Assembly (NCBI GenBank): GCA_022825895.1
Contig: JAJDVX010000042.1
Span: 6,525 to 70,524, forward strand
Direction of reading: 5' to 3'
DNA length: 64,000 nt
DNA from: Chloroflexota bacterium
GTDB lineage: Bacteria > Chloroflexota > UBA11872
In this document: one piece after another, positions 3,892 through 54,121 of the stretch
Position numbering within the stretch: position 1 is the stretch's first letter
Layout: every line of letters starts with the position of its first letter
The notes under the pieces: generated by a model
The model's database searches: none
What the model was told of the DNA's origin: nothing
The model's input: the letters and a program-made list of their open reading frames with translations, nothing else
Translations under genes and position numbers: made by a program

Positions 3892-4896
3892 ATGAGCACG
3901 CCGCGCCGCATCGCCGTCATTGAAGTCAACCACTGGCATTCCACCTACGACGCCGCCTACCTGACGGTTCTGCAGAACCTGGACCTGGACATCGAGTTGG
4001 TAGGCGTCTCGGACAGCGACGCCGCGATCGCGGAGGACCGGGCGAGTCGCTACGAGACCACGTCGTTCACCGACTACCGCGAGATGGTCGACGCCACGAA
4101 GCCGGACTTCGTGATCGCGCTGGGCCGGCACGTGGAGATGCCCGAGATCGCGCGGTTCCTGATCGAGGCGGACATTCCATTCATGATGGAAAAGCCGATG
4201 GGGACGAGCGCGGACGTGGTCAGCGGCCTGGCGGACCTGGCGGAAGCGCGCGGCGCCTGGGTGTCGGTGCCGTTTCCCAACCGACAATCGCCGTGGGCGG
4301 AGAAGGCTCGGGAGATGATTGCGGCGGACGAGTTCGGGCCGATTTCGCACATCGTGTTCCGGATCATCCGGCCGACCATGCAGCGTTATGTCGAGTGGGA
4401 CTCGCCCTGGATGCTGGACCGCGCGCAGGCCGGCGGCGGCGCGCTGACCAACCTGGGCGGGCACGGCATGGACATGTCCAGATTCCTGCTGGGCGAGGAC
4501 GTGCAGGTGGCGTCGGCCGTCATCAGCAACATCGTCCACGCCTCGGAAGTCGAGGATTACGCCCTGGCTACCCTGCGCAGCTCGAGCGGGACGCTGGTCC
4601 ACGTGGAGGTGGGCTACACGATGCCTACCTGGCCCGCGAACGAATCCGACTCCGAGATGAAGGTGGCCGGCTCGAACGCCATGCTCAGCGCGGTTGCGGA
4701 CGGCCTGCAAATCCTGGCGCCGGGACGCAACGAGCACCTGGACACGCCGGTAACCGTCTTGTCGGCCTACCCGGGATTCGTGCGGGACTGCCTGGAGCGG
4801 GTGGGTCGCGGAGATCCGCCGGCGATCACGCCGCGGGACTGCGCGAACGCGGTGCAGCTGATTGACGACGCCTACCGGGCGGCCGGTCGGGTCTAG
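3892..4896 (+). CDS. Gfo/Idh/MocA family oxidoreductase
   Basis: Starts at MSTPRRIAVIEVNHWH (internal ATG of ORF 3853..4896). GFO_IDH_MocA-like N-terminal NAD-binding region and C-terminal alpha/beta domain. Confidence 0.75.
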   Translation: MSTPRRIAVIEVNHWHSTYDAAYLTVLQNLDLDIELVGVSDSDAAIAEDRASRYETTSFTDYREMVDATKPDFVIALGRHVEMPEIARFLIEADIPFMMEKPMGTSADVVSGLADLAEARGAWVSVPFPNRQSPWAEKAREMIAADEFGPISHIVFRIIRPTMQRYVEWDSPWMLDRAQAGGGALTNLGGHGMDMSRFLLGEDVQVASAVISNIVHASEVEDYALATLRSSSGTLVHVEVGYTMPTWPANESDSEMKVAGSNAMLSAVADGLQILAPGRNEHLDTPVTVLSAYPGFVRDCLERVGRGDPPAITPRDCANAVQLIDDAYRAAGRV

Positions 4897-5676: not shown

Positions 5677-7149
5677 TCACGCGTCGTTCGGAGTCGCCGC
5701 CCAGCCGCGGGCGCGCTGGACGGCTCGACGCCAGGTGGGGCGATCGATGGCGAGGGTCTCCAGGCCAGGCTCGAACAGCGCTGGTGCGGGGCGAAGCGAG
5801 CGCAGCTCGTCCAGACCGGACCAGACGCCCTCGGCCAGGCCGGCCAGGTACGCGGCGCCAAGGGCGGTGGTTTCGATGTCCGCCGGCCGGGCGACCGTGC
5901 GGGCGGCGCTGGCGGCCTGGAGTTGCAGGAGCAGGTCGTTGGCGGCGGCGCCGCCGTCGACGAGCAGTTGGCCGGTGAGCGCGGGCATGAGTTCCAGGAC
6001 GTCCTGAACCTGGTGGACGATGGCTTCGAGGGCGGCGCGGGCCAGGTGAGGAGCGGTGACACCGCGCGTGAGACCAAGAATTGCGCCGCGAGCGTCGGGA
6101 TCCCAGTAGGGTGCGCCCAGGCCAGTGAAGGCGGGGACAATCACCGCGCCTCCTGTATCGGGCACGGCGCGCGCCAGGGTCTCGATTTCGGGGGCGGACT
6201 CTATCAATCCCAGTTCGTCTCGCAGCCATTGCACCAGCGCGCCGCCGGTGAACACGCTGCCCTCGTAGGCGTAGGTCAAGCCGTCGGGCCGCCCCAGCGC
6301 GACGGTGGTGAGCAGGTGGTCAATGTCCGGCGGGCGCGTGTCGCCGGCGTGCTGGAGGAGAAAACAGCCGGTGCCGTACGTCACCTTGGCGGCGCCGGGC
6401 GCTACGCCGAGGTGGCCGAAGAGGGCGGCTTGTTGGTCTCCGGCAATGCCACTGATGGGTGTCCCCGGGGCGACCGGGGCGTCGACGCCGGCGACGGAAC
6501 ACCGGCCACTTGAGGGCACGATCTCGGGCAGGGACCGCGCGGGGATTCCGAGTAGCTGGAGCATATCGTTCGACCAGCAACCGGTCTCCACGTCCATCAG
6601 CAGGGTCCGCGAGGCGTTGGTGGCATCGGAGAGATGCGCGCCGCCCGACAGGCGAGCAATCAGCCAGGCGTCCACGGTTCCGAAGCGCAGGCGGCCGGCG
6701 TCGCGGGCCGCGGCGACCTCGGGCACGTGATCCAGCATCCAGGCAAACTTGCCGGCACTGAAATAGGGGCTGGGGCGCAGGCCGGTGACGGCGCGAACAG
6801 CGTCGCCGTGGCCGGTAGTTTCCAGTTCGGTCATCCGGGGCGCGGTGCGGACGTCCTGCCAGACGATGGCCGGTCCCAGCGGTTGGAGCGTTGCGGAGTC
6901 CCAGGCGACGGCGGTCTCGCGCTGGTTGGTGATGCCAACAGTGGCGACCGCGCCGGGGGGCGTCGCGGCGAGCGCCTGGCGCGCGCTTCGGCACACGCCC
7001 TCCCAGATCTGGTTGGGGTCGTGCTCAACCCAGCCGGGCCGGGGATAGCCCTGGTTCACCGGGGCGTAGGCGCGTCCGACGATGCGGGCCTGGGCGTCGA
7101 CAACCAGGGTGGTGGTGCCGGTGGTGCCCTGGTCGATGGCGAGAATCAC
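5677..7149 (-). CDS. glpK: Glycerol kinase
   Basis: 490 aa. MILAIDQGTTGTTTLVVD, FGTVDAWLIARLSGG, full FGGY architecture typical of GlpK. Confidence 0.9.
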   Translation of the reverse strand: MILAIDQGTTGTTTLVVDAQARIVGRAYAPVNQGYPRPGWVEHDPNQIWEGVCRSARQALAATPPGAVATVGITNQRETAVAWDSATLQPLGPAIVWQDVRTAPRMTELETTGHGDAVRAVTGLRPSPYFSAGKFAWMLDHVPEVAAARDAGRLRFGTVDAWLIARLSGGAHLSDATNASRTLLMDVETGCWSNDMLQLLGIPARSLPEIVPSSGRCSVAGVDAPVAPGTPISGIAGDQQAALFGHLGVAPGAAKVTYGTGCFLLQHAGDTRPPDIDHLLTTVALGRPDGLTYAYEGSVFTGGALVQWLRDELGLIESAPEIETLARAVPDTGGAVIVPAFTGLGAPYWDPDARGAILGLTRGVTAPHLARAALEAIVHQVQDVLELMPALTGQLLVDGGAAANDLLLQLQAASAARTVARPADIETTALGAAYLAGLAEGVWSGLDELRSLRPAPALFEPGLETLAIDRPTWRRAVQRARGWAATPNDA

Positions 7150-9922: not shown

Positions 9923-11524
9923 GTGCCGCTGAACCGTCGACGGTTTGTACGGATGGCCAGCGGCGGCATTGCGTTGGCGGCCGTCGCGTCCTGCGACGTT
10001 CCCGGATCGGAGACGGGCGGCGGCGACGGGCAGCGCCTGGAGCTGCTGCTGGACGAACCGGCGACGATCGACCCGGCGCTGGTCGCCCAGCCGCAGGAAG
10101 CGACGATCGCGGATGCCCTGTTCGAGCCGTTGCTGCGCGTGGGCGAGGGCGGCGCGACGTACCCGGCCGCGGCGGACTCATGGCAGATCACGGACGCGGG
10201 GCATGCCTATCAGTTCACGCTGGCGGGCGGCGGCCGTTGGACCACGGGCGAGGCGGTGTCCTCGGACGATTTCGTATGGGCGTGGCGACGCAACCTGGCG
10301 CCGGAATTGGGTGCGACGTTCAACTACCTGCTGTTCCCGATCCGAGGCGCGGAGAGCTATGCCGGCGGCGGTCGCAATCGCGACGTGCCGGAGGTTCGGG
10401 CGCCGGATACGTCAACGCTGCGGGTGCACCTTGACGCCCCAACGCCGGGATTCCTGGCGCGGGTGGCGACTTCGACCTTCGTACCACTGCCACGCGCGGA
10501 AATTGAAGGCACCGGGGCATCGTGGACCGAGCCGATCCGAATTCGAAGCAATGGTCCGTACAAACTGGCGCAGTGGGACCGCAGCCTGGGCATGACGCTG
10601 CACCGGAATGACCACTACGGCGGACCCTTGCCGCCTCGCTTCCGCGACGTGGTTGTCCGGTTTCCCCGATCAGCCGACTCCCGGCTCCAGGACTTTCACG
10701 CAAGTCCCGCGCACGCCGCCAGCGTGAGTGGCCCGGACTATCAATCGGCACTGGCCAATGCGGACCTGCGGCCGCAGGTGCGGCTCTTCGCGCGTGCCGG
10801 CACCTGGTTCATCGTGTTCAACACGCGCAAGGCGCCGTGGGACTCGGCGGACGTTCGACGGGCGCTGTCGCTGGCTCTCGACCGCGAGGCGTTGACCGCG
10901 GCGGTGTTTGACGAGCCCACGCTTCCGGCGCAGCGCGTGACGCCTGAGACCATCCTGGCGGCCGAGTCCAATCCCGCCCCAGGGGCTGACGAGGCACGCG
11001 CGCTGCTGGCCGGCGCCGGATACCCAAACGGTGAAGGCCTGCCGCCGCTGCGCTTTACCTATCACCGCACCGACCAGTGGGACCGGCTTGCCGCGGAACT
11101 CACCCGGGTATGGAGCGATGTCCTTGGCCTGGACGTCCAGCCCGACGTCCGCGAGTGGCGCGACTTCCTGGACTTTTCGAACGCGCCCGGCGATTTTGAC
11201 GCCTACCGCGCCGGGTGGACGTCCGAGTACCGTCATCCGTCGAACTGGCTGGACGATCTGTGGCGATCGGACGTGGACTTCTTCCGATCAGGCTGGGCGA
11301 ACGCCGAGTTTGACCGGCACCTGGACACGGCGGCGGCCAGCACGGACCCGGAGGCTCAGCGCGCGGCCTACGCGGCCGCCGAAGGCCTGCTGGAAGCCGA
11401 GGCGCCGGCCATAGCCATCGGCCAGCATGCGTCGGCTTTCCTGCTCAAGCCCACCGTGAGCGCCTTCGGGATCGAGCCGGTAAGCGGTGCGATCGACCTG
11501 GCACAGGTACGGCTGGACGCCTAA
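9923..11524 (+). CDS. ABC transporter substrate-binding protein, family 5 (paralogue)
   Basis: 533 aa. Signal-like N-terminus (IALAAVASC lipobox-like), SBP_bac_5 pattern (LDPALV, SWQITDAGHAYQFTLAGGGRWTTGEAVSSDDFVWAW). Confidence 0.8.
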   Translation: MPLNRRRFVRMASGGIALAAVASCDVPGSETGGGDGQRLELLLDEPATIDPALVAQPQEATIADALFEPLLRVGEGGATYPAAADSWQITDAGHAYQFTLAGGGRWTTGEAVSSDDFVWAWRRNLAPELGATFNYLLFPIRGAESYAGGGRNRDVPEVRAPDTSTLRVHLDAPTPGFLARVATSTFVPLPRAEIEGTGASWTEPIRIRSNGPYKLAQWDRSLGMTLHRNDHYGGPLPPRFRDVVVRFPRSADSRLQDFHASPAHAASVSGPDYQSALANADLRPQVRLFARAGTWFIVFNTRKAPWDSADVRRALSLALDREALTAAVFDEPTLPAQRVTPETILAAESNPAPGADEARALLAGAGYPNGEGLPPLRFTYHRTDQWDRLAAELTRVWSDVLGLDVQPDVREWRDFLDFSNAPGDFDAYRAGWTSEYRHPSNWLDDLWRSDVDFFRSGWANAEFDRHLDTAAASTDPEAQRAAYAAAEGLLEAEAPAIAIGQHASAFLLKPTVSAFGIEPVSGAIDLAQVRLDA

Positions 11525-11548
11525 GCCGTCGCGACCGACCCGCGCGGA

Positions 11549-12391
11549 CTAGCGCTCGATCGGCTGGCCGATCATGGAACCCCACTCGGTCCAGGAGCCG
11601 TCGTAGTTGCGGACGTTGCCGACGCCGAGCAGTTCGTGCAGCGCGAACCAGGTGTGGGCGGAACGTTCGCCAATCCGGCAGTAGGTGATGACGGGGGCAT
11701 CGCCGGTCGCGCCGAGCGGGCCGTAGATCTCCAGTAGCTCATCGGCCGACTTGAAGGTGCCGTCCGCTTCGTTGACGGCGGTGAGCCAGGGAACGTTGTC
11801 GGCGCCGGGAATGTGTCCGCCGCGCTGTGACAGTTCCTGGAGGCCTGGCGGCGCCAGGATCTCGCCGGTGAACTCGGCGGGCGAACGCACGTCGACCAGC
11901 ACGGTGGAGCCGTCGCCAAGTGCGGCGCGGACGTCGGGCTGGAGGACGCGGAGCGAGGGGTCGGCCGTGCCGGCCTCATAGGCGGTGCGCTCGACCACGG
12001 TCTCGTCGGTGGTCAGTTCGCGGCCTTCCTGCTCCCACTTGAGCCGGCCGCCGTTCATCAGGCTCACGCGCTCGTGGCCGGCCATCTTGAACTGCCAATA
12101 GGCGAACGCGGCGAACCAGTTGTTGTTGTCGCCGTAGAGGATGACGTGGGTGTCCGCGGCGATGCCGGAGGCTTCCAGCAAATCCTTCCACTGATCCGGC
12201 GAGGCGATGTCACGCCGGACGCCATCGGAGAGCTGCGTCTCCCAATTCCAACCCACGGCGCCGGGAATGTGCCCGGAGTCGTACGAGGACGTGTCGACGT
12301 CCACCTCGACCAGGCGAACGTTGTCATCGCCGCCGTGGGCGGCGACCCAATCAGTGTCGACGAGGACGTCTGGATTCACATATTCGGCCAT
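11549..12391 (-). CDS. Thiosulfate/3-mercaptopyruvate sulfurtransferase (tandem rhodanese domains)
   Basis: 280 aa. Two rhodanese modules. Active-site CRIGERS in the second domain. Confidence 0.85.
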   Translation of the reverse strand: MAEYVNPDVLVDTDWVAAHGGDDNVRLVEVDVDTSSYDSGHIPGAVGWNWETQLSDGVRRDIASPDQWKDLLEASGIAADTHVILYGDNNNWFAAFAYWQFKMAGHERVSLMNGGRLKWEQEGRELTTDETVVERTAYEAGTADPSLRVLQPDVRAALGDGSTVLVDVRSPAEFTGEILAPPGLQELSQRGGHIPGADNVPWLTAVNEADGTFKSADELLEIYGPLGATGDAPVITYCRIGERSAHTWFALHELLGVGNVRNYDGSWTEWGSMIGQPIER

Positions 12392-12531
12392 TGAGGCTAC
12401 CTACCTGGGGAAAGCTGACGTGCCCGCGCGGATGCGGGGCCAATTCTTGCATGAAAACGAAGTCGTACTACATTCGAAATCGCAGGGGTGGGCTACAGTG
12501 CCCGCCGCCACCCTCTCGGTTTAGGCCGCCC

Positions 12532-14109
12532 ATGCCGACTCGAGCAAAACGCCAGCAGGCGATTCGGATCGCGGTCCTGGCACTGACGATCCTGGGCGCG
12601 GCGTTTCTCGCGCCGGCCGGGCTTGCCCATGCAGAGTCGCCGCCGGATTCCGCCATTGCCGACGGGTGGTTCTTTTCGCAGGCCGGGCCGGATGAGGGGT
12701 TGGGGTTTGAAGTCACGGACGCCGACGACGTGCCGTTCTGGACATTCTTCCAGGAAGCCGGCGGCGTCGCGCGACTGGGCTATCCGATCGCCAATCGCTG
12801 GACGCAGGGCGACCTGACCTACCAGGCGTTCCAGCGGGCCGTGTTGCAGGGGAGCGCAGGCGCCGGGGTGACGTTTGTGAACATCTATGACGAGCTGAGC
12901 CAGGCTGGACGGGACGACTGGCTGGCCTCGGAACGCGGCGTGCCCCGGCCGCCAACGTCCACGACACCCGACCAGCGGCCCTTTGCTGAAATCCTGGCCG
13001 AGCGGCTTGAACTGCTGGCACGGCATCCCGACATCGAGCGCTTTTGGTTCCGCGACGAACACTGGCTCGAGACGTATGGATTGCCCATTGCCACCGAGGA
13101 TCGCGGCCACGTGGTGGTACTGCGGGCGCAGCGCGCGGTCTTCTGGCAACTGCAAACCGACGCGGAACTGGCCACCGGGCCAGCCATGGTGGGGGTCTCG
13201 TTCAGCGGCATTCACTTCCGCGACGGCGGTCTAATCCCGACGGCGGCAACCGCCGGCGTTGCGGATCCGGCGCTGGCCGGGACGACCGGGCAACTGGCAT
13301 TCCTGAGCAACCGCGACGGGGCCTGGAACCTGTGGGCCATGACGCCGACCGGGACCGAGTTGACGCAACTCACGCAGACGGGCGGCCTGACGAGCCGTCC
13401 GAACTGGTCGCTGGACGGGCGGCGGATTGCCTACTCGGCGTTTGCGAGCGGGGGGTACCAGGTTTTCGTGGCCGACGGCGACGGGAGCAATCCGCGGCAA
13501 CTCACCAATACACCCGCCACGGACTGGGAGGCCTGGTGGTCGCCGGACGGCGAGCGGCTGGTGTTTGCCAGCACCCGCAGCGGCGAGAGCGAGATCTACA
13601 CGATGCTGGCGGACGGTTCCGAGCAGCGGATCATCGGCGACCAGGCCGGGTTTCTCTGCTATCCCGCGTGGTCGCCCGATGGCTTGCAGCTCATCTTCAC
13701 CAGCGGGTCGGACATAGTGACCGTGGATCTTGACGATCCGCAGGGTTCGCGCGCCGTGATTAGCAGCGGCCGCGATCCGTCGTTCTCGCCGGACGGCACG
13801 CGTATTACGTTTGCGCGCTGGATCGGGGATGCCTTTGATGTGTTCGTTGCCGACGCCGACGGATCGAATGAAGTCCGCCTGACCACGCACCCCGCTCCGG
13901 ATTGGAACCCGGTGTTTTCGCCGGACGGCGCCAAGATCGCCTTTGCCAGCTACCGGGACGCCAACTGGGAGATTTATACGGTCAGAGTGGATGGCACGGA
14001 CTTGCAGCGGATAACCGACAACCCGGCGTCGGACTACCTGCCGGCCTGGGGCAATCCGCTACGCGCCACCGACCAGCCGCGAGCGAGCGGCGGCAGCCGC
14101 CCCAAGTAG
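12532..14109 (+). CDS. Secreted TolB-like PD40 beta-propeller repeat protein with an uncharacterised N-terminal domain
   Basis: Internal start MPTRAKRQQAIRIAVLALTILGAAFLAPAGLAHA (signal peptide). C-terminal half has repeated PD40-type units (S.S.DG..IAF, SPDG..L.F.S.R.G..EIY). Confidence 0.7.
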   Translation: MPTRAKRQQAIRIAVLALTILGAAFLAPAGLAHAESPPDSAIADGWFFSQAGPDEGLGFEVTDADDVPFWTFFQEAGGVARLGYPIANRWTQGDLTYQAFQRAVLQGSAGAGVTFVNIYDELSQAGRDDWLASERGVPRPPTSTTPDQRPFAEILAERLELLARHPDIERFWFRDEHWLETYGLPIATEDRGHVVVLRAQRAVFWQLQTDAELATGPAMVGVSFSGIHFRDGGLIPTAATAGVADPALAGTTGQLAFLSNRDGAWNLWAMTPTGTELTQLTQTGGLTSRPNWSLDGRRIAYSAFASGGYQVFVADGDGSNPRQLTNTPATDWEAWWSPDGERLVFASTRSGESEIYTMLADGSEQRIIGDQAGFLCYPAWSPDGLQLIFTSGSDIVTVDLDDPQGSRAVISSGRDPSFSPDGTRITFARWIGDAFDVFVADADGSNEVRLTTHPAPDWNPVFSPDGAKIAFASYRDANWEIYTVRVDGTDLQRITDNPASDYLPAWGNPLRATDQPRASGGSRPK

Positions 14110-45142: not shown

Positions 45143-46615
45143 GTGCCCGACCAGCTCCACCGCCTCACCCTTCACGCGGCCTCGGACGGCCTGCGCTCGG
45201 GGCAGTTCAGTTCGGTCGAACTCACCCAATCCCTGCTCGATCGCATCCAGGCCGTGGACGGCCGCATCGGCGCCTACCTCACCGTTACGCCTGACATCGC
45301 ATTGGAACAGGCCTCCGCAGCCGACCAGCGTCTCGCGGCGGGCGACAACTGCCCGCTCCTCGGTCTGCCCATCGCCCTTAAGGACGTACTCACCACCGCC
45401 GGCGTCGAAACCACCTGCGCCTCCCGCATCCTGCAGGGCTTCATCCCGCCCTATGACGCCACTGCCGTCACCCGCTTGAAGCGGGCCGGCGCCGTCACGC
45501 TCGGCAAGACCAACATGGACGAGTTCGCCATGGGCTCCTCCAACGAGCACTCCGCCTACAAGCCCGTGCGCAACCCCTGGGACCTGGACAAGGTGCCCGG
45601 CGGCTCCAGCGGCGGCTCCGCGGCCGCCGTGGCCGCCGACGAGTGCCTGGCCGCCCTGGGATCGGACACCGGCGGCTCGGTCCGACAACCCGCCGCCCTC
45701 TGCGGCTGCGTAGGCCTCAAGCCCACCTACGGCCGCATCTCGCGCTTCGGCCTTATTGCCTTTGCCTCCTCGCTGGACCAGATCGGCGTGCTCACCAAGG
45801 ACGTCACCGACGCCGCTCTCCTGCTGGGCGCCCTGGCCGGCCACGATCCGCGCGATTCCACGTCCGCTGAGGAGCCTGTGCCCGACTACGCCGGCGAGCT
45901 GAATCGGGATATCGGCGGCCTGCGCATAGGCGTGGCGCCCGAGTACTTCGGCGAGGGCCTCGACCCACAGGTCGGAGACTCCGTCCGCGCGGCTATCAAC
46001 GACCTGCGAGACCTCGGGGCCACCGAGCGCGAAGTCTCGCTGCCCCACACCGAGTACGCCCTGCCCACCTACTACGTCATCGCCCCGTCCGAGGCCAGCG
46101 CCAACCTGGCCCGCTACAACGGCGTCAAGTACGGCCTCTCCGACCCCCAGGCCACCGACGTCGACGAGATGATGGCCCGCATCCGCGGCCGGGGCTTCGG
46201 ATCCGAAGTCAAGCGCCGCATCATGATCGGCACCTTCGCCCTCTCCTCCGGCTACTACGACGCCTACTACGTCCGCGCCCAGAAAGTCCGCACCCTCATC
46301 AAGTCCGACTTCGAAACTGCCTTCCGGGATGTGGACGTCATCGCCGCCCCCGTCGTCCCCGCGCCCGCGTTCGACCTGGGCGCCAAGCTCGACGACCCCG
46401 TGGCCATGTACCAGTCCGACATTATGACCCTCCCCGCCTCGCTGGCCGGCCTGCCCTGCCTGAGCATCCCCTGCGGATTCGTGGACGGCCTGCCGGTCGG
46501 CCTGCAGCTCATCGCCCCGCCCTTCGCCGAGTCCCGCCTCCTCCAAACCGCCCGCGCCTACGAACGCGACCGCGGCCCCCTCCCCACCCCCACCAAAGCC
46601 ATCGACTCCCAATGA
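45143..46615 (+). CDS. gatA: Glu-tRNA(Gln) amidotransferase subunit A
   Basis: GTG start 5 nt after the gatC stop. Amidase signature [13 protein letters not shown], catalytic K/S/S context. Confidence 0.9.
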
Positions 46616-46732
46616 CCACCGTGTATCACGTCCCCTCTCTCCCCGGAAAGCACGCCTTCTCTTCCCCTCTCCTGAGACCGTTACGTAATTCGAGGGACGG
46701 CTGCGCGGTAGCAAACCTGTTGCGGGGGCGCC

Positions 46733-46852
46733 ATTCTTCCCCTCTCCAAGGGGAGAGGCAGATTCGGGCGTCTTCGGCCGAAATCGGTGAGGGGTCTTCC
46801 GGGCAACCAGGCCTGGGTTGCGCAAAGGTCTCTCAGGAGACCTTTGAACAGC
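46733..46852. repeat. Repeat copy A (divergent) of a MITE-like element family
   Basis: Shares ggtgaggggtcttccgggcaacca..cctgggttgcgcaaaggtctctc and the gagacctttgaacagc tail with copies B-D. Confidence 0.6.
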
Positions 46853-46875
46853 GTCCCGCGTCCCCCAAGCCGCGT

Positions 46876-46958
46876 CCGCTCTTCCTCCCTCTCCCCGTGG
46901 GAGTGGGTTGGGGTGTGGGTCTTCCGGGCACCCAACCCAGGGTTCCGCGAAGCTCTTT
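46876..46958. repeat. Repeat copy B of the MITE-like element (gatA-gatB spacer)
   Basis: ccgctcttcctccctctccccgtgggagtgggttggggtgtgggtcttccgggcacccaacccagggttccgcgaag. It contains a CCCTCTCCC/GGGAGnGGG inverted repeat. Confidence 0.7.
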
Positions 46959-47032
46959 TCTAGCGGAAGGCGGAGCCTTCCTTGAGCTTGTCGAAGGGCC
47001 ACTCAAAGCAGTCGAAAGCCCCTCTTAAACCC

Positions 47033-48646
47033 ATGCCTACCGCCTACCGCACCGTCATCGGTCTGGAAACCCACGTCCAACTCCGCACCCGCAGCAAGAT
47101 GTTCTGCGGCTGCGCCGCCGACTACGCCAACGCCCGGCCCAACACCCACGTCTGCCCCGTCTGCCTGGGCATGCCCGGCGTCCTGCCCGTCATCAACCGC
47201 GAAGCCGTGGACCACACCATCCGCACCGGCCTGGCCCTCAACTGCGAGATTCCCGAATACGCCAAGTTCGACCGCAAGAACTACGCCTATCCCGACCTGA
47301 TGAAGTGGTACCAGATTTCCCAGTACGACCTCCCGCTCTGCATCGACGGCCACTTCGACGTCGAGGTGAACGGCGCAACCACCCGCGTTGGCATCACCCG
47401 CGTCCACCTGGAAGAGGACACCGCCCGCCTGACCCACGTAACCTCCGCCGACGGCGCCCCGGCCAGCCTGATCGACGTCAATCGCTCCGGCGCGCCGCTC
47501 ATGGAAATCGTCTCCGAGCCGGACATCCAGACGCCCGTCGAAGCCATGGCCTACGGCGAGAAGCTGCGCGCCCTGCTTCGCTGGATCGGCGTTTCTACCG
47601 CCAATATGGAGGACGGCGCCCTGCGCATCGACGCCAACATCTCAGTCTGGCCCCAGGGCGAACCGATCGGCGACGTCAAGGTCGAAGTCAAGAACATGAA
47701 CTCCTTCCGGTCGCTGGGCCGCGCCCTGGCCTTCGAAATCGAGCGCCAGACCGCCCGGCGCGAGCGCGGCGAACCGATCGAGCAGGAAACCCGCGGCTGG
47801 GACGAGACTTCAGGCACAACCCGCTCCCAGCGAACCAAGGAATACGCCCACGACTATCGCTACTTCCCCGAACCCGACCTGCCGCCCCTACACGTCACAC
47901 GTCAACGCGTCGACACCCTTCGCGCCGCCCTCCCCCGCATGCCCGACCAGGTCGCCGCCGACCTGCTCCAACAAGGCGCCCCCGAGGCCGACATCGCCGA
48001 ACTCGTCCAGGACCGTCCCCTCACCGACTACACCCTCGCCGTCATCGAAGCTGGCGCTTCCGCCGGCGAGGCCGTCACCTGGATCGTCCACGAACTCCGC
48101 CGCGCCCTCAACGCCCACACCGCCACCCGCCGTTCCCGCGAAAGCGGGAGCCCATCCGCTCTTCCTCCCTCTCCTGGGGGAGAGGGTTGGGGTGAGGGGT
48201 CTTCCGAGCAACCAACGCTCGGGTTAGGCAAAGGCCTCCAGGAAGGAAAGGACGGGAGTCAGGGTCGGCCGCCCCCCAACCGCCCAAGCGCAGGAACCAT
48301 CATCCCCATCCCTCCAGCTGAAATCGCCTCGCTCCTAGAATTCCGCGCCCAGGGCGCCGTCAGCAGCACCATGGCCGGCGAAGTCCTCGACGAAATGTTC
48401 GCCACCGGCAAGTCAGCACGGGCCATCGTGGAGGCCCGCGGCCCCCAGATCAGCGGCCAGGACGAACTCCTCGCCATCGCCCGCCAGGTCATTGAAGAGA
48501 ATCCCCAGGCCGTCCAGGACTACCGCGACGGCAAGGGCCGCGCCATCCAGTACCTCATGGGCCAGGTCATGCGCATCACCCGCGGCAAAGCCAACCCGGG
48601 CGCCGTAAGCGCGCTCATCCGTACCGAACTCGACGGCGCCAAATAA
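47033..48646 (+). CDS. gatB: Asp-tRNA(Asn)/Glu-tRNA(Gln) amidotransferase subunit B, with a ~55-aa repeat-derived in-frame insertion
   Basis: Internal ATG ([17 protein letters not shown]). GatB catalytic core and C-terminal YqeY-like tail. An extra segment in the linker before the tail is encoded by repeat copy C. Confidence 0.88.
48156..48238. repeat. Repeat copy C of the MITE-like element, located inside the gatB reading frame
   Basis: ccgctcttcctccctctcctgggggagagggttggggtgaggggtcttccgagcaaccaacgctcgggttaggcaaaggcctc. More than 85% identical to copies B and D. Read in frame as ...[33 protein letters not shown]... Confidence 0.75.
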
Positions 48647-48698
48647 TCGCTGCAGGCCCTCGCCTTGGCGGCCAGGATCGAGCCTGCGCTCCCGCACC

Positions 48699-48823
48699 AG
48701 AGACCTTTGCAGAACAGCCCCGCGCCCTCGAAAGTGGGGCCTCTCTTGCTCCCTCTCCCCGTGGGAGAGGGCTGGGGTGAGGGTCTTCCGCGCAACCAAC
48801 CCTGGGTTACGCAACGGTCTCTC
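48699..48823. repeat. Repeat copy D of the MITE-like element (downstream of gatB)
   Basis: agagacctttgcagaacagcc...gcctctcttgctccctctccccgtgggagagggctggggtgagggtcttccgcgcaaccaaccctgggttacgcaacggtctctc. Confidence 0.7.
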
Positions 48824-48904
48824 ACCAAGGGCTGTCGCGCCGAGCGCCTGCGAGCGACCTGGTCTAAAATAGACCAATCTAAACCTCCCACAGGAGCATC
48901 CGCG

Positions 48905-49183
48905 ATGGAGCACACCACATCGCAACGCACCTGGACCGTCGCCGAGGCCAAGGCCAAGCTGTCCGAGGTCCTGCGGCTCGCCGAGGAAGAAGGGCCCCAA
49001 CGCATCGGCCTGCGCCGGCCCTTCGTTGTCGTGCCCGAAGCGCTTTGGGACGCCAGGCAAGCGCGCGACAGGCACTTGGGCCGGTGGCTGCTTGAAAACG
49101 TGCCAAGGGGCCTGAACTGGGAAGTCCCCCGTGACCGGCGATCCGATAGGGCGGTTCCCTTTTCGGAAGAAGACGAACGGTGA
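48905..49183 (+). CDS. Type II antitoxin, Phd/YefM-like (VapB partner)
   Basis: Internal ATG with AGGAG 8 nt upstream. MEHTTSQRTWTVAEAKAKLSEVLRLAEEEGPQRI... Stop overlaps the vapC GTG start. Confidence 0.7.
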   Translation: MEHTTSQRTWTVAEAKAKLSEVLRLAEEEGPQRIGLRRPFVVVPEALWDARQARDRHLGRWLLENVPRGLNWEVPRDRRSDRAVPFSEEDER

Positions 49184-49599
49184 CGGGGTTTCTCCTGGAC
49201 ACGAACGTCATTTCCGAATTGACCAGGGACGAACCCGATTCGCGAGTGGTCCGGTTTCTCGACGACGAAGGCGACTTATGGCTGTCGTCCGTCGTCGTGT
49301 ACGAGATGGAATATGGCCTTGCGACCCTTCCCCAGGGGCGCCGCGCGGCAAGGTTGCGCGCTTTGCAAGCGAATATCCTCGCCGCCTTTGCAGGCCGGCT
49401 CCTGTCCTTGGATCAATCCGGCGCCCGCTGGTCAGCCGAGCTCCGAGCGCAGGCACGCCACGTCGGGCGGACCATCGACGTCGGTGACGCCCTCATCGCC
49501 GGCACTGCCAGAGCGCACGGCCTGGCCCTCGCCACCCGCAACATCCGCGACTTCCAGGGAATGGACATCCACCTCGTCAACCCCTGGGACTACCCATAA
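49180..49599 (+). CDS. vapC: Type II toxin VapC (PIN domain ribonuclease)
   Basis: 139 aa. GTG start. LLDTNVISEL...D...acidic PIN residues...ATRNIRDF. Confidence 0.85.
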   Translation: MTGFLLDTNVISELTRDEPDSRVVRFLDDEGDLWLSSVVVYEMEYGLATLPQGRRAARLRALQANILAAFAGRLLSLDQSGARWSAELRAQARHVGRTIDVGDALIAGTARAHGLALATRNIRDFQGMDIHLVNPWDYP

Positions 49600-49966
49600 C
49601 GGTCTTCGCCCACGCGCACTCCCAGAACGCCGCCACCCGCCCTTCGTCCGCGCCCCCCGTTCGTGGTCAGCCTGTCCTGAGCTTGTCGAAGCGGACGGGC
49701 CAGAGTCTTCGGCGGCCCGTGTCGAACCACAAAGGCCCAGCATCCAACCCTCCCAGACAGTCCCCTCCGTCATTCCGGAGGCTTCACCCGGAGTCCAGGG
49801 CCCTCAACCTGCAACCTGTGCCTCGGCGCCCGTCAGACGTCCGAGCGAACTAGTTAGACCATTCCTGGTACCGCGCCATTCCGCCCCGCGTATCGCTCCA
49901 CGCTCCAACGCCTTCCTCCGACCAGCCCACGTATCATGCCCGCGCCAACAGTGAGGGCGGATCACG

Positions 49967-52588
49967 ATGGCTAGACGGGCAGGTTGCGAACCGGCCTACG
50001 ACGCTGCCCAACGCTGGGTCGACGCAGCCTTACGCAAGGACGACTCGCTCTTCACCCCTGGCCACCCAATCTGGTCACTGCACAACCTCTATGACTTCCG
50101 CAAGCGAATATTCGATGACTCCGGACCGTCTCACGGAGGGTTTTATCGTCGATTCGAGCACCAACTCAGAGATGCACCATCCGATACTATTCAAATTGCC
50201 GCCGAAATCCTCTACGTGTACTTTCTGATCGCCGACCAGCGTGCCATACGAGGAACCACAAAGAGGCAACGGATCCGGGAAGTCATTAGCTGGGCTCCCA
50301 CTGCCCTGGAGGTCCCTGCCAATCTAATCGAGTCCGATATCGCAATCGATTCTGGAATAATGAATCCAGGAGCCGCGTCCCAGACGACTATCCACGCCCA
50401 AGTCCATATGATTGCTGAATTTGTATTGCACTGGAAGCAGCTTCCTGAAAGCGATCGTAGAGACTCCCTATCAGATCCTTGGGGTTTCTTGCAGGCCGTC
50501 CGATCGGTCCAAGTTCCCAGAGCCCAACCACAAGCGGAAGCGTTGCTGCATCTCGTCCATCCAGATTCATTCGAACCAAGTATGAGGAATGATAAGGGAC
50601 AGATTAGATCATCGTTTAACGATTCCTTGATTGCTCAGGCTGATGACGTTGATAGAGATTTATTCACAATACGTGAGCAACTGACCGGCATATCAAGCAT
50701 TTACAGAGAAGGTTTCGACTTTTACTCGCCTGAGATACATTTCGTTTGGAGTTCAGGATGGACCAAATTAGAACAATTCGTTCGCTGGGGAAATCGTTTC
50801 TTGGAGCATCCCAGCTTTGTTGAACTCGAGATTGACATCAAGCTCAGTCCTGCAGACCGCCTCAAACAGGCTCGATCTGCACTGGAATCTGGAGCAGACA
50901 ATTGGCTTGCCCTGCTAGAGGAAGCCTTCAAGAATCATGCTCTAGTGAGGTTTGACTCACGTGACGCATTTATCAAGTGGTGTAAGGAGAATGAGTCTGA
51001 CGCAAAGTCCGCTCTTCGGGAATTATGGAACGATCAAGCCGGCATCGTCGAATCAGTTCGATCTTTCTCGTCGCAGTTTCCAATGAGCGTCGTTCGCGGA
51101 GTAGGCACACGGACAAGGTTGATTTCGTTTCTAGCGATGGCCATTGATCCACGCCGATACCCTATATACGGGTACTCGCTCTTCCAGAATGCATACAACC
51201 TGGTCGGACACGATCCACCGGAAGATAGTGCTGACGAGGCTGACGTCTACTCCCATGCCCTCAGATTCCTGGACACCGTGCTGGACGAAGCAAAGAAGCA
51301 TGAACTTCACTTGCCGGATCGTCTGTACGCCCAGTCGGTGCTCTGGTCAATCACACGACCCGACCGATACGAGACGATCCTCCAGAAGGCTGAGCACGAA
51401 GCTTTTCGTCGATACCGTGGCGACGTTATAGCCCCGAGTCTCACGTTTGAGGAGCTTGTAGAAAATCAACGATTCGTCCAGAACCGCGAAATCACGGCCA
51501 TTAGCCTGCCCAACGCAAGCGACGGAAGCGGGGATCTGACATATGCGCTTACTCCACCACCCCCCGCCGGACTCAACTTCGATTCAATTGCCCGCACCCT
51601 GACCGGTACACCATCGGCAACGCAGCCAGCCACGACCTACATCTACACGGCAGTCGACGGGGACGGTGCCAGCGCCACGCAGGATTTCTCGATTACGGTG
51701 TCCGCTGAGACGCTTCATGACCTCGCTGCCCGGCTCTATTGGGACGCCGAGCACCTCCAAAACATCCAGCGCCTGATCGAGGACAAGGGCCAAATCGTCT
51801 TCTACGGCCCGCCGGGCACCGGCAAGACCTTCGTCGCCCAGGAACTCGCCAGTCACTTCGCCCGCGCCGAAGGCTCAACCGACCTCGTCCAATTCCACCC
51901 GTCGTACGCCTACGAAGACTTTGTGGAGGGCTTCCGTCCAGACACGATCAGGGACCAACCAGGCTTCAAACTACGCGAAGGCCCCCTCAAGCGCATTGCC
52001 GACAAAGCCCGCGCCAATCCCAACGCAACCCACGTCCTGGTCATCGACGAAATCAACCGCGGCAACGTCGCCCGGGTCTTCGGCGAGCTCTACTTCCTGC
52101 TCGAATACCGCGACCGCGAGATATCGCTCCAATACTCCGAGCAACAATTCGCACTCCCCAAGAATCTTTGGTTCATCGCCACCATGAACACCGCCGACCG
52201 ATCCATCGCCCTGGTGGACGCCGCCCTCCGCCGCCGCTTCCACTTCGTCGAGTTCTCACCGCACACGCCGCCCGTCCAGGGCCTGCTAACCCGCTGGCTT
52301 GAAACGAGAGAGTCCGACCTTCAATGGGTCGCCAGGTTGCTGGACCTGGCCAACGACAAACTCAGCGACCGCCACCTGGCCATCGGCCCCAGCCACTTCA
52401 TGCAAAAGAATCTTGACGAAACATGGGTCGAGTTGATCTGGAACCACTCGATCTACCCGTATGTTGAAGAACAACTCTTCGGGGATTACGACCGCCTCCA
52501 AGATTTTAAGTTCGAGAATCTCAAGCGTGCGGCGCAGCGGCAGGATCGGAGTCCAGGCAGCGGCGATGACACGCCTGACGCTGACTGA
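49967..52588 (+). CDS. mcrB: McrB-family AAA+ GTPase with a ~570-aa uncharacterised N-terminal region
   Basis: 873 aa. The C-terminal 300 aa (GPPGTGKTF Walker A, VLVIDEINRGNVARVFGELYFLLEYR, FIATMNTADRS, RRRFHFVEF) are an McrB-type GTPase. The N-terminal region has no confident match and has lower GC. Confidence 0.8.
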   Translation: MARRAGCEPAYDAAQRWVDAALRKDDSLFTPGHPIWSLHNLYDFRKRIFDDSGPSHGGFYRRFEHQLRDAPSDTIQIAAEILYVYFLIADQRAIRGTTKRQRIREVISWAPTALEVPANLIESDIAIDSGIMNPGAASQTTIHAQVHMIAEFVLHWKQLPESDRRDSLSDPWGFLQAVRSVQVPRAQPQAEALLHLVHPDSFEPSMRNDKGQIRSSFNDSLIAQADDVDRDLFTIREQLTGISSIYREGFDFYSPEIHFVWSSGWTKLEQFVRWGNRFLEHPSFVELEIDIKLSPADRLKQARSALESGADNWLALLEEAFKNHALVRFDSRDAFIKWCKENESDAKSALRELWNDQAGIVESVRSFSSQFPMSVVRGVGTRTRLISFLAMAIDPRRYPIYGYSLFQNAYNLVGHDPPEDSADEADVYSHALRFLDTVLDEAKKHELHLPDRLYAQSVLWSITRPDRYETILQKAEHEAFRRYRGDVIAPSLTFEELVENQRFVQNREITAISLPNASDGSGDLTYALTPPPPAGLNFDSIARTLTGTPSATQPATTYIYTAVDGDGASATQDFSITVSAETLHDLAARLYWDAEHLQNIQRLIEDKGQIVFYGPPGTGKTFVAQELASHFARAEGSTDLVQFHPSYAYEDFVEGFRPDTIRDQPGFKLREGPLKRIADKARANPNATHVLVIDEINRGNVARVFGELYFLLEYRDREISLQYSEQQFALPKNLWFIATMNTADRSIALVDAALRRRFHFVEFSPHTPPVQGLLTRWLETRESDLQWVARLLDLANDKLSDRHLAIGPSHFMQKNLDETWVELIWNHSIYPYVEEQLFGDYDRLQDFKFENLKRAAQRQDRSPGSGDDTPDAD

Positions 52589-53795
52589 GCACCAACCGCG
52601 CGAGAATGTTCGTCTCACGTCCGAGCAACTTGACACGCTCCTGCGCTTGGTGCGCTCGGTCGACGTGTCGCCAACGTCCACGAGCAACACCTGGATTCTG
52701 AGGCCTGGCTCCCAGGTAGGCGTCGTTCGCCTGCCCGATCTCACCGTCGAAATCCGGCCCAAGCTCCCCATCCACCGCGTCCTCTTCCTGGCCTCGTACG
52801 CCCTCGGCGCCTTCAAGCTCAAGCCCGACATCGCGGACATCGATCGATCACCCGACCTGGTGGAAGCCATGGTCCAGCTATTTCACGCCGCCGTCCGGCA
52901 GGCCACTGGGCGCGGCTTATTGCAGGGCTATAGGACTCACGAGGAAACGCTGAACGTCGTCCGCGGGCGCATTCGCATTGAGGAGCAACTGCGTCGGCGC
53001 TTCGGCATCCCCGTCCCCATTGAGGTCCGCTACGACGAATTCACGCCTGACATCCCGGCCAACCGCATCCTCAAGGCCGCCGTGGGCCGGCTGGCCTGGC
53101 TGCCGCACCGCTCCCGCGACACGCGCCGGCTGCTGAGTGTCATGCGCGCCGTCTTGGCCAACGTGTCGGACGTCGAATATCGCTCGAACGATATCCCCAA
53201 CATTCCCATCACCCCGCTGAACACCCACTACCGGCCCGCTCTGGCCCTGGCCCGACTCATCCTCAAGTCGGGCGCTGTCGAACTCGCGGCTGGCAAGGTC
53301 GAATCCGCCTCGTTCCTGATCGACATGAACAAAGTGTTCGAAGATTTCGTGGTCGTCGGCCTGCGCGAAGCGCTCGGTCTGACGGAATACACCTTTCCCC
53401 AGGAAGCACACGGCCGCGAACTCTGGCTGGCTGCGGGCCAGAAAGTACGGCTAAAGCCGGACATCTCCTGGTGGCAAGACAACCGTTGCATATTCGTCGG
53501 CGACGCCAAGTACAAGCGCACCACCGCTCACGGCGCCCAGAACCACGACATCTATCAGGCCCTCGCCTACGCCGTCGCCGCCGGCCTGCCTGGCGCCCTC
53601 CTTATCTACGCTCACGACGAACAGGAACGCGTCGCCCCTGCCGTCTACGACATCCCGCACGCCAACAAGCGCATTGAGGTCATGGTCCTGGACCTACGCG
53701 GCTCGCGGGATGAACTCATGCAACGCATTCACGCCCTCGCCCACAAGGTTCGCGCAAACGTGGCGCCGGTCACGGCTGCCCACCTCGCCGCCTGA
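52566..53795 (+). CDS. mcrC: McrC-family nuclease subunit (PD-(D/E)xK)
   Basis: Internal ATG overlapping the mcrB 3' end by 23 nt. D...IFVGDAKYK PD-(D/E)xK core. Typical McrC length and position. Confidence 0.8.
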   Translation: MTRLTLTEHQPRENVRLTSEQLDTLLRLVRSVDVSPTSTSNTWILRPGSQVGVVRLPDLTVEIRPKLPIHRVLFLASYALGAFKLKPDIADIDRSPDLVEAMVQLFHAAVRQATGRGLLQGYRTHEETLNVVRGRIRIEEQLRRRFGIPVPIEVRYDEFTPDIPANRILKAAVGRLAWLPHRSRDTRRLLSVMRAVLANVSDVEYRSNDIPNIPITPLNTHYRPALALARLILKSGAVELAAGKVESASFLIDMNKVFEDFVVVGLREALGLTEYTFPQEAHGRELWLAAGQKVRLKPDISWWQDNRCIFVGDAKYKRTTAHGAQNHDIYQALAYAVAAGLPGALLIYAHDEQERVAPAVYDIPHANKRIEVMVLDLRGSRDELMQRIHALAHKVRANVAPVTAAHLAA

Positions 53796-54121
53796 GCCAG
53801 CCACGGCCTCGGGCGCGTCGATGCCCAACAGCGGCAGGCAACTCCTAAGGATTCCTTAGTTGTTCGAACCGCGGGCACACCCAGTCAAACGACACCTCGG
53901 CCACGACAGCTCGAATCCGTCGTCGCGATTGGTCTCGGGATCAGAGCCCGAGGCCACCTGCCCTGGCGCCGCTAGACTCCGGCAACTTGTGCAGAATCTG
54001 CACAAGTTCGAACCGAGAGCGGTTGAGTCCATCTCCCGCGAGATCCAACTACCGAGGAATCCTCGGTAGTTGCAAACGACGCCGACCGGCTCGCCCACCG
54101 CCCCTCATCGTCGCCGCTACC

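Follow-up and report, generated by a model that had tools for sequence, protein, structure and literature searches.

MITE copies with a BoxC/TM-type core and a probable IS5-family partner around gatB in an uncultured Chloroflexota bacterium

BoxC/TM motifs were first described in the 1990s. They are present in hundreds of genomes and accompany rearrangements, but no explanation of how they arose and spread is at hand. Formation of an intrastrand triplex has been demonstrated for the E. coli sequence (PMC4666352), and Holder et al. (2015, PMC4666352) found the TM motif of E. coli to be always intergenic and saw no connection with transposons or remnants of transposases. Bacterial MITEs descend from IS elements or are moved by them (reviewed in PMC10969869), and an IS5-related example is known from Porphyromonas gingivalis (PMC4596501). 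Furthermore, insertion sequences of five families, IS5 among them, target REP sequences (Tobes and Pareja 2006, PMC1525189), and the Rickettsia palindromic elements (RPEs) and the QMITEs of Coxiella are hairpin repeats that lie in frame in unrelated genes for functional proteins (PMC10969869, PMC5896051).

Here, we analyzed a 64-kb stretch of DNA (the window) from a Chloroflexota bacterium, in which repeats cluster around gatB and vapBC. Our data make it highly probable that these repeats are copies of a non-autonomous transposon, a MITE of an uncultured Chloroflexota clade, with an IS5-family partner, a BoxC/TM core, hairpins as insertion targets and insertions at the gat genes. The mechanics are ordinary, a MITE and its IS partner; no prior description of this family was found in the literature searched.

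Copies, ends and IS partner of the element

The original prediction, made from the letters of the window, described four copies of a MITE-like repeat within 2.2 kb. Indeed, the 28-nt core has four matches in the window, compared to 0.00 expected in shuffles, and nhmmer finds copies A to D with E-values of 1e-25 to 5e-34, all on the plus strand (Table 1). Beyond these four, core and nhmmer scans across the 64 kb gave no further MITE copy. All four predicted sites stand, but starts had to be shifted, such as that of copy A from 46733 to 46674 and that of copy C from 48156 to 48117. The CCCTCTCC/GGAGAGGG hairpin is present in the element as described. Two peptides had been assigned to spurious antisense ORFs; RNPGxVARKT is antisense, and LPLPVGEGWGEGLP turned out to be read in a sense-strand frame.

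Table 1. Features around gatB (positions in the window)
Feature	Position	Strand	Evidence or remark
gatA (amidase)	45143-46615	+	Pfam Amidase 1e-156; start inferred from 490-aa orthologues
gatA/gatB wedge	46612-47042	+	Insert-free relatives keep ATGA overlap
MITE copy A	46674-46834	+	nhmmer model 2-125, E=1.5e-25
MITE copy B	46837-46958	+	nhmmer E=1.1e-30; TM core 46887-46919 by pattern match
gatB, 537 aa	47033-48646	+	Pfam GatB_N, GatB_Yqey
MITE copy C, in frame within gatB	48117-48239	+	nhmmer model 3-124, E=1.5e-28
MITE copy D	48700-48821	+	nhmmer E=5.2e-34; TM core 48751-48783
vapB-like antitoxin	48905-49183	+	Pfam PhdYeFM_antitox 28.5 bits, just under cut-off of 29.8
PIN-domain toxin	49180-49599	+	Pfam PIN 63.8 bits
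Copy of second, weaker, unrelated repeat family	49641-49780	+	Contains TGAGCTTGTCGAAG at 49678-49691

The canonical unit is ~121 nt long and is bounded by 12-nt terminal inverted repeats (TIRs), GAGACCTTTGCA at the start and CGCAAAGGTCTC at the end. A length of 121 nt is the mode (19 of 39 copies), with variants of 143 to 166 nt. The edges are sharp, since conservation rises from ~0.4 to ~0.9 exactly at GAGACC and drops after GGTCTC, and 87% of the TIR cells are paired in a hand-specified structure. The ends are flanked by duplicated target bases (TSDs) of variable sequence and 5 to 6 bp: exact 5-mers occur in 10 of 81 copies (0.7 expected) and exact 6-mers in 9 of 81 (1.1 expected), exact TSDs being limited to about one-fourth to one-third of the copies. 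Copy D is the best preserved in the window; it has the TIRs GAGACCTTTGCA and CGCAACGGTCTC and is flanked by CACCA at 48695-48699 and 48823-48827. At 161 nt, copy A represents a long variant, in which loop 2 of the triplex motif (see below) holds an additional hairpin, GATTCGGGCGTCTTCGGCCGAAATC. Copy C (TM core at 48167-48198) has degenerate termini (CACACC... ...GGCCTC).

The likely source of mobility is found outside the window, which has no transposase gene within its 64 kb. In locus L032, an insertion sequence of the IS5 family (1192 bp, at 28-1219) has its first 17 nt and its last 10 nt in common with the MITE. Its transposase, a DDE enzyme of 327 aa, matches NF033581 (IS5) with 285.5 bits (cut-off, 140) as well as the Pfam families DDE_Tnp_1 (PF01609) and DUF772 (PF05598). 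This complete copy was seen once and lacks a clean TSD; partial copies lie at L008 and L091. The IS5-family element may thus supply the transposase to the MITE in trans. Pairs of TIRs 0.4 to 5 kb apart gave 13 candidates for such elements, 12 of which were ordinary genes between separate copies, and only that of L032 was a true IS.

Units that are short, GC-rich and hairpin forming, and that cluster and often adjoin one another, also resemble REP/BIME arrays, and the copies might be REP/REPIN palindromes spread by a RAYT, an IS200/IS605-like Y1 transposase, instead of a DDE transposase. However, the unit measures 121 nt, compared to the 20 to 40 bp of REP palindromes, has 12-nt TIRs and 5-6-bp TSDs, and is without the GTAG/CGTC head that, like REP size, is described in PMC3733652. 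The IS5-family element with the same ends is a further argument against RAYT. To our knowledge, REPs are not described as having TIRs or target duplications, and we regard a REP/REPIN origin as extremely improbable.

The family is dispersed. Among the matches listed, more than 104 exact core matches are spread over 18 genomes, of which 17 bear Chloroflexota or Chloroflexi in their titles, and they are scattered along whole chromosomes; in the sampled data, the family is almost entirely restricted to uncultured Chloroflexota. In 850 kb, nhmmer gave 285 matches, 82 of them full length; the loci were picked with a pattern from the 3' half of the MITE, which biases copy density, the conservation of that half and the fraction of TM motifs that lie in MITEs. 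The mean identity of copies is 83.1% within a genome compared to 74.6% between genomes, and 21 of 59 copies have their nearest neighbor in their own genome (5.7 expected). Dispersed copies within OZ253587 reach 99.2% identity, and near-identical copies are found megabases apart, which suggests recent movement of the MITE. The element is hence neither unique to this spot, with 18 genomes carrying it, nor devoid of defined ends, and dispersed copies, TIRs, TSDs and an IS partner with the same ends all speak for the mobile, MITE-like family that had been predicted.

A triplex-type core as cargo and possible landing site

The core of the MITE has a pyrimidine block, a complementary purine block and a G/T third block with short loops, CCCTCTCCC - GGGAGAGGG - GGGGTGAGGG. 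We set the cores against Table 1 of PMC4666352; judged by this match, the core is the BoxC/PIT/TM intrastrand-triplex motif. In BLAST searches against plasmids and E. coli, including BoxC loci, only nt ~33 to 94 of the MITE matched, which comprise the TM core and adjacent bases, and never the TIRs. In total, 98 of 102 TM motifs in the selected loci lie inside MITE copies, some of them within genes. Neither this core nor the targeting of hairpins described below was part of the original prediction.

As the TM core is present in many phyla without a mobile context (BLAST; PMC4666352), it is imaginable that the elements are immobile structural repeats of the BoxC/TM type, spread by recombination or local duplication, with TIRs and TSDs as by-products. 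The insertions at the gat genes, which seem to move between lineages as alleles (see below), would fit this picture. Sharp common ends flanked by direct duplications that vary in sequence, an IS that ends in the same way and near-identical copies megabases apart are, however, not what recombination alone would be expected to produce, and we give this explanation very little credence.

A structured small-RNA gene is another conceivable identity of the unit, the repeats then being paralogous sRNA genes similar to whalefall-1 (RF01762). Sub-threshold matches to this Rfam family (26.2, 21.2 and 26.9 bits) include one at 46738-46796 in copy A, and the core of the long variant aligns with it over a CUCUCC/GGAGAG hairpin, CAGA, a second hairpin and then GGUGAGG. 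In addition, 85.5% of the cells are paired, compared to 39 to 59% when the structure is slid (pairing was scored on the hand-specified structure, the automatic RNAalifold consensus of 7 pairs being discarded), and the DNA fold has a z-score of −3.3. On the other hand, the scores stay under the gathering score of 37, and the long-variant core is therefore not a member of whalefall-1; Rfam gave no match over the whole window at the gathering threshold. A single hairpin accounts for the modest covariation, promoter- and terminator-like signals at the copies are not above shuffled expectation, copies lie in ORFs in both orientations, and TIRs, TSDs and nesting are hallmarks of transposons. We thus consider a family of sRNA genes very unlikely. 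The alignment rather suggests that whalefall-1 itself may be a TM-type DNA repeat.

For the transposable MITE, the motif may be more than cargo. Flanks of the form CTCTCC...GGAGAG, with variable loops and TSDs, surround 18 to 24 of 81 MITE copies, so that about one-fourth of the copies sit in the loop of a pyrimidine/purine hairpin. All three IS ends seen also abut GGAGAGG arms, in such a hairpin loop. We propose that the transposase prefers the non-B DNA structure of the hairpin as a target. Each insertion would then import a new target, and copies would nest and cluster; a hairpin that is both cargo and preferred target would account for four copies in 2.2 kb. Some nested copies may have spread jointly, as composites, rather than through separate insertions.

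Insertions at gatA/gatB, within gatB and near vapBC

The original gatB ATG shares bases with the stop codon of gatA, and a filler of 411 nt (46622-47032) holds copies A and B. A 10-bp duplication brackets the wedge (ATGACCACCG at 46612-46621 and ATGCCTACCG at 47033-47042); it is perfect in the related locus L001. The first duplicate includes the original gatB ATG, and the second forms the new gatB start. In our model, the wedge split the ancestral ATGA overlap, and the ATG-bearing duplication recreated the start of gatB. The filler ORF (46612-47028) stops 4 nt before the gatB ATG, and of the frames through the wedge only the coupling frame is open; the ORF kept open across the wedge probably relays translational coupling.

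Copy A, nested in the filler, has an orthologous copy in L001 (9785-9925). Copy B adjoins copy A and aligns to a gap in L001, where it is missing. Besides the window itself, the left and right non-MITE parts of the filler have matches in L001 alone. Presence and absence of the gat insertions do not track genome relatedness, and filled and empty sites, which differ by a linked 6-nt indel, both exist; it seems that lineages exchange the insertions as alleles. This state-linked indel and the non-MITE sequence common to both inserts make recurrent simple insertion, or exact excision, at the gat sites unlikely. As a closely related pair, the complete chromosomes OZ242271.1 and OY764080.1 are ~95% identical over 11 kb of compared sequence. 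In four-taxon site patterns, sites with the genome pattern extend up to the edges of the gat insertions, which rules out exchange of long tracts between the window genome and L001 and leaves imports from other donors unbounded.

Within gatB, a 53-codon insertion (~48119-48307) follows the helical domain and precedes the YqeY-like tail; it is also defined by comparison with insert-free orthologues. Residues 362 to 371 of PDB 3al0_B correspond to residues 362 to 426 of the window GatB, and the GatB_Yqey match begins at profile position 38 (residues 424-533), past the insert. Read in the gatB frame, copy C gives a 41-aa translation. The insert is rich in Gly, Pro and Ser and predicted to be disordered, and the AF2 pLDDT of residues 371-422 is ~27 (protein P0001 is identical to the window GatB). 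Copy C thus appears to be read as coding sequence of GatB, in a linker before the tRNA-binding tail. That a copy lies within gatB and in its reading frame, and that copies A and B part gatA from gatB, had escaped the original prediction.

gatB is usually essential. In-frame copies are found in GatB at three loci and also in Lnt, HsdR and DnaE-like genes of related genomes, with Pfam domains on both sides. The MITE length plus a 5-bp TSD is 126 nt, a multiple of three, so that the canonical insertion is frame neutral, and the consensus is without stops in four of six frames. Frame neutrality and open frames may let insertions in protein linkers survive, which would give tolerance in frame a simple arithmetic basis. 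The insertion in gatB has 159 nt, not 126, and the termini of copy C are degenerate; hence, further events are needed there. For annotation, it matters, not least for gene callers applied to MAGs, that the MITE gives rise to spurious ORFs, breaks up an operon junction and adds residues to genuine proteins.

vapBC lies after gatB within a variable islet (~48647-53839, ~5 kb) that is missing from a relative (L002), where synteny breaks. The 14-mer TGAGCTTGTCGAAG, thought to be a fragment of the MITE family, does occur twice, in the non-MITE part of the gat filler (46983-46996) and downstream of vapBC; the downstream occurrence, however, lies in a member of a second repeat family, unrelated to the MITE (Table 1), and the motif is not a MITE fragment. 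This second family has 13 weak nhmmer matches in other loci, and 19 of 108 sequences contain TGAGCTTGTCGAAG, with 22 occurrences in total. With the gatA/gatB overlap wedged open, an insertion in gatB and an islet missing in a relative, the description of the region as plastic proved apt.

It is tempting to combine these observations into a broader model, which we regard as possible but rather doubtful: BoxC/TM would serve an IS5-family transposase both as cargo and as a landing pad recognized by its structure, the frame-neutral MITE would have been repeatedly co-opted as disordered linkers (GatB, Lnt and DnaE-like proteins), and recombination would pass alleles with and without the insert from one lineage to another. 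If true, hitchhiking on a MITE explains the spread of TM motifs, and transposon targeting explains why the motifs mark unstable loci.

Comparison with known systems

Like IS-derived MITEs, the Chloroflexota element is small and non-coding, has TIRs, TSDs, many dispersed copies and a hairpin-forming body, and is common with its partner only at the ends. Unlike the known ones, it has a BoxC/TM body and inserts into the same motif. The apparent preference of a transposable element for a palindromic repeat as insertion site is shared with the REP-targeting insertion sequences; in the Chloroflexota, however, the site is a triplex-type hairpin that the element's own MITE derivative carries, which leads to self-nesting.

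The core has the same three blocks and short loops as BoxC/PIT/TM (compare CCCTCTCCCCGTGGGAGAGGGCTGGGGTGAGGGT of copy D with CCCTCTCCCTGTGGGAGAGGGCCGGGGTGAGGGC of E. coli TMECO type B), and both BoxC/TM and the MITE are associated with rearranged loci. In contrast to the E. coli TM, the Chloroflexota motif resides within a TIR-bounded, TSD-making element, can be intragenic and is itself an insertion target. A motif bounded by transposon ends that is at the same time an insertion target offers a testable route for the dispersal and instability of BoxC/TM.

Like RPEs and QMITEs, the MITE lies in frame in unrelated protein genes and adds a peptide segment. It occurs in a different phylum than RPEs, and for this reason and from composition no sequence relationship to RPEs is expected. 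We know of no RPEs with clear TIRs, TSDs, an identified IS partner or a length that together with the TSD is a multiple of three, whereas the Chloroflexota MITE has clear TIRs, TSDs, an IS partner and a length plus TSD divisible by three. In sum, the family represents an RPE-like case outside Rickettsia and Coxiella; core genes, gatB among them, apparently accommodate a hairpin repeat within their reading frames.

Ends, spread and partner of the repeat family

The four repeat copies that the original prediction had placed around gatB are genuine (their 28-nt core gave four matches against 0.00 expected), and a profile made from them recovered the window copies at E = 1e-25 to 5e-34, with none beyond A to D in the 64-kb window (Table). 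Their predicted extents were truncated; alignment with wider flanks placed the start at GAGACC and the end at GGTCTC. The motif TGAGCTTGTCGAAG, taken for a fifth fragment, lies at 46983 and 49678 but belongs to other sequence outside the MITE.

Table. MITE copies in the window and full-length in-frame copies in genes of related loci
Feature	Position	Strand	Basis or context
MITE copy A, long variant	46674-46834	+	profile search, refined ends
MITE copy B	46837-46958	+	profile search, refined ends
MITE copy C	48117-48239	+	profile search, refined ends
MITE copy D	48700-48821	+	profile search, refined ends
In-frame full-length MITE, Lnt-like gene	L056, aa 268-308		between Pfam domains
In-frame full-length MITE, HsdR-like gene	L095, aa 327-365		between Pfam domains
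In-frame full-length MITE, DnaE-like gene	L098, aa 1071-1118		between Pfam domains

An exact-pattern scan, sampling one genome per species, found the core in >104 matching stretches among the matches listed, and 17 of the 18 genomes with core matches, again among the matches listed, were titled Chloroflexota or Chloroflexi. We take the bin names RHO, COS and SB to suggest sponge-microbiome MAGs. Copies were scattered around complete chromosomes, and nhmmer returned 285 matches, 82 of them full length, in 850 kb of sequence. When 81 copies were aligned with 40-nt flanks, conservation rose from ~0.4 to ~0.9 at GAGACCTTTGC and fell after GCAAAGGTCTC, with a modal length of 121 nt. Just outside these ends, 10 of the 81 copies had exact 5-mer and 9 had exact 6-mer direct duplications (0.7 and 1.1 expected with shuffled partners). 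Thus, a search with the core for copy number, termini and target-site duplications (TSDs) supported the proposed, putatively mobile MITE-like family: many genomic copies, dispersed in 18 genomes among the matches listed, with sharp ends and TSDs.

MITE-like ends at wider spacing delimit one true insertion sequence (IS), at 28-1219 of locus L032 in OZ253587.1, which has the first 17 nt and the last 10 nt in common with the MITE. Its 327-aa product scores 285 bits against NCBIfam NF033581, "IS5 family transposase" (cut-off 140), and Pfam DDE_Tnp_1 and DUF772 match as well; two more copies of the IS are partial, at contig ends. MITE identity is higher within genomes than between them (83.1% versus 74.6%) and reaches 99.2% among dispersed copies in OZ253587, which points to recent activity in this genome with its complete IS. 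Taken together, spread, sharp ends, TSDs, partner IS and within-genome similarity make the family a MITE as usually defined, putatively mobile; with its IS5-family partner, it is undescribed in the literature searched.

Insertions in the gatCAB operon

The MITE family has reshaped the gatCAB operon. The gatB gene (47033-48646) is open through copy C without a stop, and residues 363-425 of its product have no counterpart in solved GatB structures: positions 362 to 371 of Thermotoga maritima GatB correspond to 362 to 426 here, between the helical domain and the YqeY-like tail. The Pfam GatB_Yqey match begins at profile position 38, after the insert, and orthologues without the insert are 53 codons shorter. 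The insert is Gly-, Pro- and Ser-rich, and AlphaFold, from a shallow alignment, gave it a pLDDT of ~27 and no secondary structure between confident domains. Judged from the sequence, copy C is coding sequence, predicted to be translated within GatB. The MITE consensus has no stops in four of six frames, 121 plus 5 nt makes 126 nt, a multiple of three, and copy C differs from the consensus by a −1/+1 indel pair that avoids the sole TGA of the entry frame. Other full-length copies are likewise in frame (Table). The family is a frame-neutral element predicted to be read as protein within core genes; MITE fusions that keep the frame have precedents in the Rickettsia RPEs and Coxiella QMITEs (PMC10969869, PMC5896051).

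In the gatB of locus L065 (JAPPFO010000237.1, ~4068-4201), the in-gene MITE carries a second element within its hairpin, with the frame kept and the linker longer. In four 498-aa GatB orthologues (P0028-P0031) the linker is extended by 13-14 residues at the insert site, and the extension starts with LNAH as in the insert-bearers; it may be an insertion remnant after internal deletion.

Upstream, gatA and gatB overlap by ATGA in relatives without insert. In the window and the related locus L001, the original gatB ATG remains on the gatA stop and is followed by a filler of 411 and 277 nt, respectively. The 10-bp duplication ATGACCACCG flanks the filler (perfect in L001, 8/10 in the window), and its second copy is the new gatB start. 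Within the filler, a pyrimidine/purine hairpin holds copy A; copy B, found in the window and not in L001, is a further insertion; and the outer filler parts, searched as a dispersed repeat, were not one. The reading frame from the old ATG is open across the entire filler in both genomes and ends 4 nt upstream of the new gatB ATG; stops interrupt both other frames, 4 and 4 of them in the window and 3 and 1 in L001. The difference in length between the two filler ORFs, 132 nt, is divisible by three, and the window ORF alone has a shuffle P of ~0.02. From the open frame in both genomes, the 4-nt spacing and the 132-nt difference, we infer that selection keeps the filler ORF open, so that translation is relayed through it from gatA into gatB.

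The predicted plasticity of the region is borne out downstream, where a ~5-kb stretch (48647 to ~53839) with copy D, a vapB-like/PIN pair, a second repeat family and an AAA_5 protein is missing from the related locus L002, whose dprA-secDF genes match the window from 54861 on. An 873-aa ORF (49967-52588) with He_PIG and AAA_5 (McrB-like) domains adjoins vapBC, and the stretch may represent a small islet of defence or toxin-antitoxin genes. The second repeat family (49641-49780) is unrelated to the MITE and has the 14-mer TGAGCTTGTCGAAG and a GGGCC...GGCCC hairpin; the 14-mer also occurs in the gatA/gatB filler (46983-46996), the motif 22 times in 19 of 108 sequences, and nhmmer gave 13 weak matches in other Chloroflexota loci. 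L002 has a 1.2-kb spacer (11456-12656) after its insert-free gatB, with a MITE copy at 12421-12523, and its genome, OY764080.1, also bears the in-frame HsdR copy.

Filled and empty gat alleles

None of 200 bootstraps made the insert-bearing GatBs monophyletic, and at least 5 state changes are needed. Across 11 kb of syntenic DNA, L001 (insert) and L002 (none) have 95.3% nucleotide identity, the window and L003 (none) 89.5%, and the window and L001, both with insert, 81.6%. The inserts of the latter two have diverged as much as their genomes (77.7-79.1% identity). Since 52 nt round the triplex-motif core of their in-gene copies (window 48156-48207) are nevertheless 100% identical, DNA-level constraint or conversion from other copies is indicated rather than protein-level selection. 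Both empty alleles have 6 nt in common that are absent from both filled alleles, and the left, middle and right variants of seven GatB inserts occur in incompatible combinations. This linked difference and these combinations are hard to reconcile with simple repeated insertion or with precise excision. Tentatively, and with slightly less than even confidence, we suggest that recombination has swapped old filled and empty alleles, to which other MITE copies may have contributed by conversion.

A triplex motif as cargo and probable target

Against plasmids and Escherichia coli genomes, BLAST matches of the consensus were limited to nt ~33-94, which comprise the TM core with neighbouring bases, and the MITE ends and terminal inverted repeats were never matched. 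The E. coli sequence, CTCCCTCTCCCTGTGGGAGAGGGCCGGGGTGAGGGC, is the BoxC/PIT element, studied as the intrastrand triplex motif TM (PMC4666352); of 5426 complete E. coli genomes, 3846 had BoxC loci matched by the TM core at this sensitivity (median, 2 places in each genome). TM forms a stable triplex in vitro, is known from >260 genomes, and shows more rearrangement at its loci than control loci do (Holder et al. 2015, PMC4666352). The core of copy D is CCCTCTCCCCGTGGGAGAGGGCTGGGGTGAGGGT.

Sub-threshold matches to Rfam whalefall-1 align with the long-variant core, TM with a second-loop hairpin; the RF01762 consensus aligned at window 46738-46796 and at 6629-6683 of locus L052. Whalefall-1 itself may represent a repeat at the DNA level or the core of a MITE, not an RNA gene. 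In 59 copies, 85.5% of cells were paired versus 39-59% with partners slid, and covariation was modest and mainly in the variable 5' hairpin, which does not argue for RNA function.

In the sequences sampled, which are biased toward MITE loci, 98 of 102 TM motifs lie inside MITE copies. Both arms of a TM-type hairpin flank 18-24 of the 81 aligned copies; the duplicated bases there are loop-derived, and loop and TSD sequence varies from case to case. IS ends abutted a GGAGAGG arm in all three cases seen. We infer that insertion prefers the hairpin loop. A MITE bringing its own target would lead copies to nest and cluster, which would explain the local pile-up originally noticed.

The BoxC/TM motif is tied to transposition, as cargo and probably as target. 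The loop preference would resemble that of REP-targeting ISs, known from five IS families including IS5 (PMC1525189). In E. coli, however, TM is always intergenic, and transposase remnants were never found near it (PMC4666352), whereas here it lies inside a MITE and also within genes.
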